DNA of 41,736 bases from a virus (Duplodnaviria > Heunggongvirae > Uroviricota > Caudoviricetes). The stretch is from positions 1 to 41,736 of the IMG/VR virus record IMGVR_UViG_2529292910_000010. One strand, 5' to 3'. This document shows positions 24,889-26,434 of the stretch, piece by piece. The notes below the pieces were generated by a model. That model was not told the DNA's origin, did no database searches, and saw nothing but the letters and a program-made list of their open reading frames with translations. A program made the translations under genes and the position numbers. Numbering within the stretch: the first letter of the stretch is position 1; each line of letters begins with the position of its first letter.

Positions 24889-25250
24889 TTTAAGTTGTGT
24901 GGCGAAGTAACCACTCTTAACAGATTAAGATAAAATTTGCGGACCGCGGTAATTTTTTTTGCTAAATTAAAGCCATATAAAAAATAAGATCCATAAGAAA
25001 TTATTAGTATACTAAGGTTTAACATGGCTACTATTGCGCAATCAAAGAAACAAAAAAACTTAAAATTGGTTTTTACACCAGCAGTTCTGGGACTATCCGC
25101 AGCCATTCAGTTGCTAAGCAAGCAATTGAAAATCTGTATAATACTTGCGTAACCGTTACGAATAATCATTTTGATACCATCTATAGAAATAAAAAGTTAA
25201 AAATAGCTTTTATAAATAAAGATACAAAAGCTAAATATTTCTTCGGCTAC

Positions 25251-25964
25251 ATGTCATGCTCACGAGAAGAGTATCTCCTTCCTTATATTGGTGATGAACA
25301 CTGGAATGAGCACAACATACCACTAGATGATAAAAAATACATAGTCGAAAGAACCTATTTTTTATATTATTACGATAGTGATATTTTAATATTAACTCAA
25401 AATCATCTTGGGCCGAAAGAATCGGATTTAGCTTATCTGCTTTACAGCCAGAGTGGTAATCCTGGAAATAACTTTTCATTCCAAGCCATCTGGAAAAAAG
25501 AGAGCGTCAAAGAGCTACTTGAAACAGGAAGTACTTTGAGAAGTTGTGATATTGTCCTGACTGCTCCCAGGAACTTTGATGCAACAAATTACCAGCTAAA
25601 TAGTTCATTTTCTAAGGAACTGGTAAATATGATGGTAGGGCTGGGTGGAACACGTCTCAAGTTAAATCTAAGGGGACGTGCATCAGGGAGAGTAAAAGTC
25701 AAAGGTTATTTATCAGATCTCGTTAAGGATGGTATTAAAGAACTCCTTGAAAAAATGCCGGGAATTGTAAAAAAAGCGGCAGTAACACAGCCCAAAAATA
25801 CCGTTGAACAAAGTCTTCTTGATCAGGTACTCATTTCAGAAAAAAACATATATACCGTTAATGGTTATGGCACTGATAGTGATGTTCTGCAAGCCATGAT
25901 TTCTGCTAAAATTGATAACAATGAATACCTTAAGCAATACGATATCAGCAAAAAGAAGGTATAG
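25251..25964 (+). CDS. hypothetical soluble protein, gene A of the AT-rich cassette (frame is open upstream to 25023; possible true start ATG 25024 with a frameshift at an A7 run)
   Basis: 237 aa from ATG 25251; upstream in-frame region reads protein-like but has no ATG/GTG/TTG; ATG at 25024 with a good SD (aagg) is in the adjacent frame and would join via one base at A7 run 25052-25058. Confidence 0.6.
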   Translation: MSCSREEYLLPYIGDEHWNEHNIPLDDKKYIVERTYFLYYYDSDILILTQNHLGPKESDLAYLLYSQSGNPGNNFSFQAIWKKESVKELLETGSTLRSCDIVLTAPRNFDATNYQLNSSFSKELVNMMVGLGGTRLKLNLRGRASGRVKVKGYLSDLVKDGIKELLEKMPGIVKKAAVTQPKNTVEQSLLDQVLISEKNIYTVNGYGTDSDVLQAMISAKIDNNEYLKQYDISKKKV

Positions 25965-25967
25965 GAT

Positions 25968-26411
25968 ATGTTATTGAAATACTTAAGAAACCTGATTGTA
26001 AGTGTTTTTTGCACCTTGTTCCTACTGAGGTATATCCCTCAGATGGGGCATGCTGACATACTTACAGCCTCCGGGGTTATTTCAACTGTATCCGGTATTT
26101 TATTTGGTTTTATTTTAGCCACAATATCAATTTTTAGTGCTGCTAGCGAAAACTCAAATGGAATAATAAAAGCATTAAAAAACAACAACATACTTCAAGT
26201 TATTATTGTAAATCTATTAACCGCAGGTGCATCTTTAATTACGGCATGCGTTATTGCTTTGATAGCAATGTTTGCCAATGAAAAGACATTGTTACATGGA
26301 GAAAAAATAGAATTTATTTTAATTATCGAATCTTTATCTCTTCTTATCATTTCAGTAATAACTTTTGCCTTTACATGGAGAAAAGTAAACTGGATACTCC
26401 CCCACATTTAA
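25968..26411 (+). CDS. hypothetical integral membrane protein (four predicted TM helices), gene B of the AT-rich cassette
   Basis: 147 aa; four hydrophobic stretches of ~20 aa; starts 4 nt after gene A stop. Confidence 0.7.
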   Translation: MLLKYLRNLIVSVFCTLFLLRYIPQMGHADILTASGVISTVSGILFGFILATISIFSAASENSNGIIKALKNNNILQVIIVNLLTAGASLITACVIALIAMFANEKTLLHGEKIEFILIIESLSLLIISVITFAFTWRKVNWILPHI

Positions 26412-26413
26412 AA

Positions 26414-26434
26414 AGGGCAGAAATGCCCTTTTTT
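26414..26434. terminator. bidirectional intrinsic terminator between the convergent cassette and Q
   Basis: agggca-gaaa-tgccct hairpin flanked by A5 and T5. Confidence 0.75.

Follow-up and report, generated by a model that had tools for sequence, protein, structure and literature searches.

RexA and RexB of phage lambda make up the oldest known abortive-infection system, in which the trigger and the action of RexB are unresolved. Only five Rex-like systems were counted as described in a January 2026 paper, and four of the five are located next to cI. Here we describe a pair of genes, A and B, that resembles these systems and is found in a 41,736-nucleotide stretch of DNA from a Caudoviricetes virus (IMG/VR record IMGVR_UViG_2529292910_000010, positions 1 to 41,736; hereafter the window). 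Gene A (25024-25964) and gene B (25968-26411) both lie on the plus strand and form an AT-rich cassette adjoining the antiterminator gene Q of the prophage. We propose, at a probability of about 0.62, that the cassette is a highly diverged RexAB-type two-gene prophage exclusion (abortive infection) system. Its homology to RexAB is very probable, and intact copies would, by analogy with the described pairs, more likely than not function in exclusion.

RexABpp (PP_5643/PP_5644), encoded by Pseudomonas putida prophage P1, is a RexAB-type pair that defends against phages (Rosendahl et al. 2026, PMC12894663). The RexApp protein binds DNA and, if overexpressed, arrests growth and permeabilises the membrane in a manner that depends on RexBpp (PMC12894663). 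As with the present cassette, this remote pair is recognised by structure or profile and not by BLAST, and it includes a four-helix partner, but it is located near a CI-like repressor. Sbash gp30/gp31, CarolAnn gp44/gp43 and Butters gp30/gp31 are, by description, likewise pairs of a soluble and a membrane protein with which prophages exclude heterotypic phages. These actinobacteriophage pairs differ from the cassette in their Gram-positive hosts, in their longer A proteins (337-372 amino acids) and, in Butters, in a reversal of roles. The actinobacteriophage RexA homologues dimerise and bind DNA non-specifically (PMC11077077).

The lambda genes and the cassette are both carried by temperate lambdoid phages of Escherichia coli, and in both, adjacent and co-oriented genes encode a soluble protein of ~280-310 amino acids followed by a four-helix membrane protein of ~145 amino acids. 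However, the protein encoded by gene A is ~30 residues longer than RexA, and the cassette lies beside Q and convergent with it, whereas lambda rexAB lies downstream of cI and is co-transcribed from PRM. The features of the locus are as follows.

24870-24891, minus strand: probable terminator hairpin with a U-run on the minus strand only, forming context at the left edge of the slot, outside the cassette
24892-24983, no strand assigned: conserved non-coding block flanking the cargo slot, ACCACTCTTAACAGATTA ... TTTGCGGACCGCGnTAAT
24984-25023, plus strand: cassette-specific AT-rich leader, read from the sequence, its boundary taken from the comparison of prophages
25024-25964, plus strand: rexA-like gene (A) of the DUF6731 family, encoding 313 amino acids if intact, here frameshifted after codon 11
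25052-25058, plus strand: poly-A tract (A7; A8 wherever the gene is intact), the site of a -1 frameshift according to an alignment with phage cdtI
25251-25964, plus strand: residual open reading frame of 237 amino acids, corresponding to residues 77-313 of intact A
25968-26411, plus strand: rexB-like gene (B), intact, encoding 147 amino acids with four predicted transmembrane helices (AlphaFold, hydropathy and the profile link to P0188)
26410-26434, both strands: bidirectional intrinsic terminator serving the cassette (plus) and Q (minus), predicted from fold energies and U-runs
26435-26812, minus strand: gene for a QuuD-type antiterminator Q, identified by a Pfam match, whose 3' third (up to 26698) moves with the cargo

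The two linked open reading frames that the preliminary description reported to be convergent with Q are present, and 3 base pairs separate the 237-codon frame from gene B. The AT-richness that it reported is also confirmed: the cassette (24985-26434) has 34.1% G+C, against a median of 52.3% for stretches of equal size, and is the lowest-GC 1.45-kb stretch of the window. The product of Q matches Pfam Phage_antitermQ at 5.2e-52.

Relationship of the two proteins to RexA and RexB

For gene B, both hydropathy and an AlphaFold model (predicted local distance difference test score 80.6), with helices at residues 2-22, 28-59, 75-102 and 114-143, support the four hydrophobic helices proposed earlier. 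The hydrophobic segments have the same spacing as those of lambda RexB (144 amino acids) and occupy nearly the same positions. Basic residues at the N terminus, in the central loop between the second and third transmembrane helices, and at the C terminus are also placed nearly as in RexB.

A profile built from 49 B-family sequences and searched against 1.84 billion representative proteins detected 118 proteins at E <= 1e-3, nearly all of them 135-160 amino acids long. Among these, P0188 matches the profile at E 6.9e-11 and also passes the Pfam RexB model, with 29.9 bits against a cut-off of 27; lambda RexB is 37% identical to it over 81 amino acids. In hhalign comparisons, the B family aligns with P0188 at 97.7% probability, and a RexB alignment does so at E 1.7e-5. 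RexB is among the Pfam matches of eight of the ten B-like proteins tested, seven of those below threshold, and the PADLOC RexB model is matched by 3 of the 49 B-family members (best E 2.3e-4). The homology is transitive, because it runs via P0188 and the B protein of the window has no direct model match. These comparisons make it probable that the product of gene B, which would span the membrane with four helices, is a relative of RexB.

The ATG at 25024 opens a gene of 313 codons that is intact in phage cdtI (orf54), where the cassette DNA is 99.2% identical, and in most other copies. This settles the length of the first gene, given earlier as either 237 or ~313 amino acids: the shorter open reading frame is an in-frame remainder of the longer gene. 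It covers only positions 76-314 of the phrog_7651 profile and 80-248 of Pfam DUF6731 (PF20505), and its globular domain is without the N-terminal strands and helix. Both the 237-residue fragment (30.6 bits) and the intact cdtI orf54 (41.4 bits) exceed the DUF6731 threshold of 27 bits. Of 42 A-family members, 26 match DUF6731, and RefSeq names the E. coli copies DUF6731 family protein.

RexA consists of a split globular domain that is interrupted by an alpha/beta dimerisation domain (PMC11077077). In the AlphaFold model of A, a beta-rich N-terminal domain extends to about residue 145 and is followed by an inserted alpha/beta region at ~150-255 and then by a final strand and helices, which is the same order of elements. 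Identity in a structural alignment with RexA (PDB 8TWQ) is 12%. RdgC (PDB 2OWL), a recombination-associated DNA-binding protein that hosts or phages encode singly, with no membrane partner, scores far below RexA against A. The model thus indicates that gene A encodes a cytoplasmic protein with the fold of lambda RexA.

Searches with other families returned little. The sequence of A matched nothing in PADLOC or the PDB and nothing useful in NCBIfam, and PDB sequence searches with the cassette proteins were likewise empty. Some relatives weakly match PADLOC candidate systems: PDC-M67A in the case of A (6 of 42, best E 1.6e-3), and PDC-M67B (2 of 49, best E 0.093) and PDC-M18B (5 of 49) in the case of B. 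The window proteins are matched by none of the PDC models, and P0001, a near-identical stand-in for intact A, is not matched by those of PDC-M67; a literature search found no description of PDC-M67.

Pairing, distribution and the slot beside Q

A and B invariably lie next to each other on one strand. At each of the 80 IMG/VR loci with a relative of A (43-99% identity), an open reading frame of the B family lies directly downstream on the same strand, and wherever A is intact the gap between the two is -20 to +28 base pairs. A Q gene of the present type follows B convergently after 15-43 base pairs in 72 of these loci. The pair is conserved at the protein level in more than 100 contigs, down to an identity of 43% in viral contigs and of 38-39% in the most distant homologues of A. 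The best matches of A and of B in BFVD, a set of viral protein structures, belong to the same uncultured virus, ctylc9. A DUF6731 gene also precedes the gene of each of three distant B-like proteins (P0188, P0208 and P0194). At one locus (L131), the gene paired with a distant B-like protein encodes 343 amino acids unrelated in sequence to A.

Pairs of this kind are not confined to E. coli or to tailed phages. They also come from prophages of Pectobacterium, from a Vibrio chromosomal island devoid of phage genes, and from Vibrio phage 10N.286.54.F4_PE001 (Vinavirales; locus L134, 1389-2896), where the two proteins have 351 and 150 amino acids and the pair adjoins an integrase. The module therefore moves between very different mobile elements. 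The Vinavirales element is temperate, 14.6 kb in length and non-tailed (tectivirus-like).

Pseudomonas phage AUS531phi carries homologues of A (2e-19) and B (3.5e-16) immediately after a CI-like repressor gene and on the same strand as it, in the cI-rexA-rexB gene order of lambda. Given these DUF6731 and B homologues next to CI in a P. aeruginosa phage, a relationship between the cassette and RexABpp is plausible. The RexA/RexB-like layout noted in the preliminary description is thus borne out by the succession of a soluble and a four-helix protein, by the link from B to RexB via intermediates, by the pairing in every one of the 80 loci and by the cI-adjacent arrangement in AUS531phi.

The cassette is rare in the collections that were searched. 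It is present in 25 of 5,426 complete E. coli genomes, mostly of enterotoxigenic E. coli (ETEC) from pigs, and its carriers comprise pig ETEC strains, the cdt-converting phage cdtI and prophages of the Shiga toxin (Stx) phage type. A scan of genome_contigs gave three loci only, the derived peptide patterns being narrow. Homologues of A occur in only 6 of 50,697 phage records, two of which annotate them as "portal protein". These two records, ON470608.1 and ON470622.1, are from E. coli phages; their protein is 88% identical to P0001, and the label "portal (connector) protein" is almost certainly a mis-annotation.

Comparison with other prophages shows that the cassette is a module of AT-rich cargo and that the slot it occupies beside Q is variable. 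A prophage of E. coli FORC_069 (L129) is 99.4-99.6% identical to the window on both sides of the slot, but the homology stops at 24983 and resumes only at 26699. This break (24984-26698) ends inside Q, so that the 3' third of Q is exchanged together with the cassette as one block. In FORC_069 the slot is occupied by genes for a nucleoid-associated protein and hypothetical proteins. Other E. coli prophages with this type of Q carry a KAP-family NTPase or an SDH-family Clp-fold protease at the same place and in the same orientation. The slot beside QuuD-type Q genes thus swaps cargo between otherwise near-identical prophages. The ~90-base-pair block at 24892-24983 and the hairpin to its left are conserved regardless of the cargo, in part even in Pectobacterium.

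Strength of the assignment and competing explanations

Several observations weigh against the proposal that the cassette is a RexAB-type exclusion system. There is no significant direct sequence match to the lambda proteins, and the curated RexA and RexB hidden Markov models miss both cassette proteins. The B protein of the window is not matched by the Pfam (PF15968) or PADLOC RexB models. The RexA models (Pfam PF15969 and PADLOC) do not match the window fragment, cdtI orf54 or P0001, nor any of the 42 A-family members even at E <= 10, and the same models detect lambda RexA at 1e-97 and 9e-110. In direct hhalign comparisons, in which RexA and RexB were used singly or as 5-sequence alignments, the A family against RexA gave P 0.028-0.11 only, below significance, and the B family against RexB gave P 0.059 (overall range for A and B 0.028-0.13; cross-controls 0.68-0.94). 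Adding three distant A-like sequences brought no improvement for A against RexA, global alignment was uninformative, and the RexB relatives in IMG/VR are 66-100% identical to the lambda protein, which is too close for a deep profile. The alignments of A with RexA are nevertheless collinear, and the family-invariant GP..DL motif falls on GPTTSDL of RexA.

For A, structure searches of BFVD with Foldseek listed uncharacterised viral proteins and weak RdgC-like matches, with lambda RexA not listed, and for B nothing significant and no RexB. DUF6731 has no functional annotation, and a literature search for it found no paper mentioning the family. The cassette also lies outside the immunity region next to cI in which the lambda genes are found. 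Furthermore, a consensus scan and reading of 24890-25023 found no sigma-70-like promoter on either strand, for which reason we do not endorse the earlier placement of the cassette between Q and the late promoter. Finally, gene A of the window is itself frameshifted.

The profile and structure searches suggested in the preliminary description are thus divided: P0188 passes the Pfam RexB model and the order of elements in A is RexA-like, but the window proteins miss the RexA and RexB models. Because of this failure of the curated models and the different genomic position, we class the cassette as a divergent RexAB-type system, separate from lambda RexAB. To call it an uncharacterised system would be overstated, however: the kind is known, the cassette appears to be one of its divergent branches, and a RexAB-type system about as remote was validated in 2026 in Pseudomonas putida (PMC12894663). 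The new elements here are the link between DUF6731 and RexA, the cargo hotspot and a recurrent poly-A lesion.

The lesion bears directly on what this copy can do. The window has A7 at 25052-25058 and phage cdtI has A8, which is the sole difference in the 5' part of the gene. The A7 allele shifts the frame after codon 11 and leads to a stop at codon 42, and the downstream frame offers no ATG, GTG or TTG start before 25251. Owing to this frameshift in the A8 tract, the full-length sensor is probably not made, and the system is likely to be off or reduced to a function of B only. We accordingly doubt that the copy in this window is active. That the cassette here is a decaying or switched-off remnant, providing no RexAB-type exclusion and at most a role for B alone or for the residual 237 amino acids, has a little less than an even chance of being correct. 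It accords with the annotation of the same allele in ETEC4079 as a truncated protein and with independent knock-outs of A elsewhere, such as a TAG at codon 8 in two copies (L061 and L064); three other copies have different lesions in A. However, the remainder of A and the whole of B have no further lesions, and slippage between A7 and A8 could restore the frame in some transcripts or in part of a population.

A single-base difference in a homopolymer may also reflect a miscall or assembly error. The allele is present in 6 of 20 near-identical copies (the window, L038, L046, L047, L053 and L054, among these), and several A7 genomes come from one sequencing project, one of them also having an indel in B. 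A7 copies nevertheless occur on at least three single-nucleotide polymorphism backgrounds, each of which is also found with A8. Among the 80 viral loci, A is disrupted in 7 and B in 1. Such repeated loss is compatible with A being a costly trigger or sensor, and also with phase variation. For the A7 and TAG alleles, repeated pseudogenisation of the sensor gene is another possible origin.

Two other explanations assign intact pairs a different role. The first, which we consider improbable, is that the pair mainly modulates development of the prophage itself, with exclusion as a by-product. Lambda RexA has been proposed to bind DNA and to bias the developmental switch toward lytic growth (Adams et al.), and the cassette adjoins Q, a developmental regulator, whose 3' third travels with it. 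However, the pair also occurs outside prophages, in Vibrio chromosomes and the Vinavirales element, and A is often inactivated without loss of the prophage. The slot is moreover interchangeable with unrelated cargo such as the KAP NTPase, which would be unexpected for a core regulator.

The second, for which the odds appear slim, is that the roles are reversed, as in Butters gp30/gp31, such that the soluble A is a toxic antiphage effector that B sequesters until infection. The Butters system is so summarised by Rosendahl et al. 2026 (PMC12894663), and the recurrent inactivation of A but not of B (7 versus 1 of 80) is compatible with A as the costly or toxic partner. Inactivation of A would be equally expected, however, if A triggers a toxic B, and the membrane protein is the partner that acts as effector in lambda, CarolAnn, Sbash and P. 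putida (PMC12894663). B is also the more conserved partner and the one linked to lambda RexB.

We reject as scarcely credible the idea that B is a holin-like or lysis-timing protein of the neighbouring lysis module and A an unrelated accessory gene. In favour of it, B is a small protein with several transmembrane helices, encoded in the Q-to-lysis region, and a few members of its family weakly match Pfam holin families. These matches (2-3 of 49 members, best E 0.006 and 0.07) are, however, no stronger than those to many other membrane families. B is also read from the other strand than the late and lysis genes and terminated before Q, and it is always paired with A, adjoins cI in the Pseudomonas phage and occurs in non-phage Vibrio DNA.

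If the cassette is a RexAB-type exclusion system, lambda RexAB and RexABpp suggest by analogy how it may act. In a lysogen, a promoter of its own would drive the A-B pair, with transcription running opposite to that of the phage genes. A would be a dimeric sensor that binds DNA non-specifically, and would perceive a superinfecting phage via replication or recombination intermediates or via a phage protein, and then activate B. B might then oligomerise and compromise the membrane, such that growth stops and the infection is aborted.

A bolder view is that DUF6731 and its four-helix partner represent a large unrecognised branch of a Rex superfamily, spanning prophages of Enterobacterales, Vibrio, Aeromonas and Pseudomonas as well as non-phage DNA, and that the cdtI-type A gene is phase-variable through slippage in A8. 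We regard this combination as unlikely, but if it were true, A8 slippage would be a contingency-locus control of abortive infection that limits cost or autoimmunity at the population level. The link from DUF6731 to RexA/RexB would give a Pfam family without known function a testable role, and makes hundreds of diverse sequences available to covariation and structural studies. Intact E. coli examples are available, such as orf54/orf53 of phage cdtI. That the PADLOC RexA and RexB models miss the DUF6731 branch constitutes a detection gap.

Flanking signals and neighbouring genes

The signals at the two edges of the cassette differ in kind. The preliminary description had the cassette bracketed by two intrinsic terminators, of which the one at the 3' end stands. 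This hairpin (26410-26433) is predicted to be strong in both directions, with a folding free energy of -13.4 kcal/mol on the plus strand (z -4.3) and -13.0 on the minus strand, and it has U-runs on both strands and separates B from Q. The left hairpin, placed earlier at 24865-24888, is real (24870-24891; -13.8 kcal/mol) but appears to terminate the minus strand and not to bracket the cassette. Because its stem is followed by UUUUUU on the minus strand only, we assign it to leftward phage transcription, of which it is probably an intrinsic terminator; phage Ayreon has a terminator annotated in the homologous position.

A promoter belonging to the cassette itself presumably lies in, or just upstream of, the leader at 24984-25023, and a Shine-Dalgarno-like AAGG (25014-25017) lies upstream of the ATG of gene A. 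The conserved block at 24892-24983 contains the palindrome TTGCGGACCGCGG and ACCACTCTTAACAGATTA, and is common to all prophages with this type of Q. It could be a Q-dependent late promoter or qut region acting on the minus strand, or a promoter or operator for cargo on the plus strand.

As described earlier, the cassette separates Q from the tRNA/lysis region; it is encoded on the other strand from the phage genes. Three tRNA genes are found at 23418-23667 on the minus strand: Arg-tct, Arg-tcg and one with a CAT anticodon that is annotated as Ile in a near-identical genome. The lysis genes are further left, according to the annotation of the near-identical FORC_069 prophage, from which the gene names for ~19000-23400 are taken. 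After the tRNAs, this region includes genes for a SASA-family carbohydrate esterase, DUF1378, DUF826, a class II holin, YdfR, a lysozyme and a lysis protein. The layout of the late region is of the Stx-phage type, but without a toxin gene between the tRNAs and the esterase.

Two genes, both in the direction of late transcription, lie between the cassette and the tRNAs. One (23696-24409, minus strand) encodes an AraC-family helix-turn-helix regulator of 237 amino acids (Pfam HTH_AraC, 2.4e-13), and a strong promoter-like site (24472-24445, minus strand) with 10 of 12 matches is present upstream of it. The other (24545-24742, minus strand) encodes a 65-amino-acid winged-helix-like protein (phrog_331). 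Immediately upstream of Q are minus-strand genes for a DUF968/HNH-like protein (331 amino acids; 26815-27810) and a KilA-N protein (275 amino acids; 27812-28639), an arrangement that is kept in most loci with the cassette.

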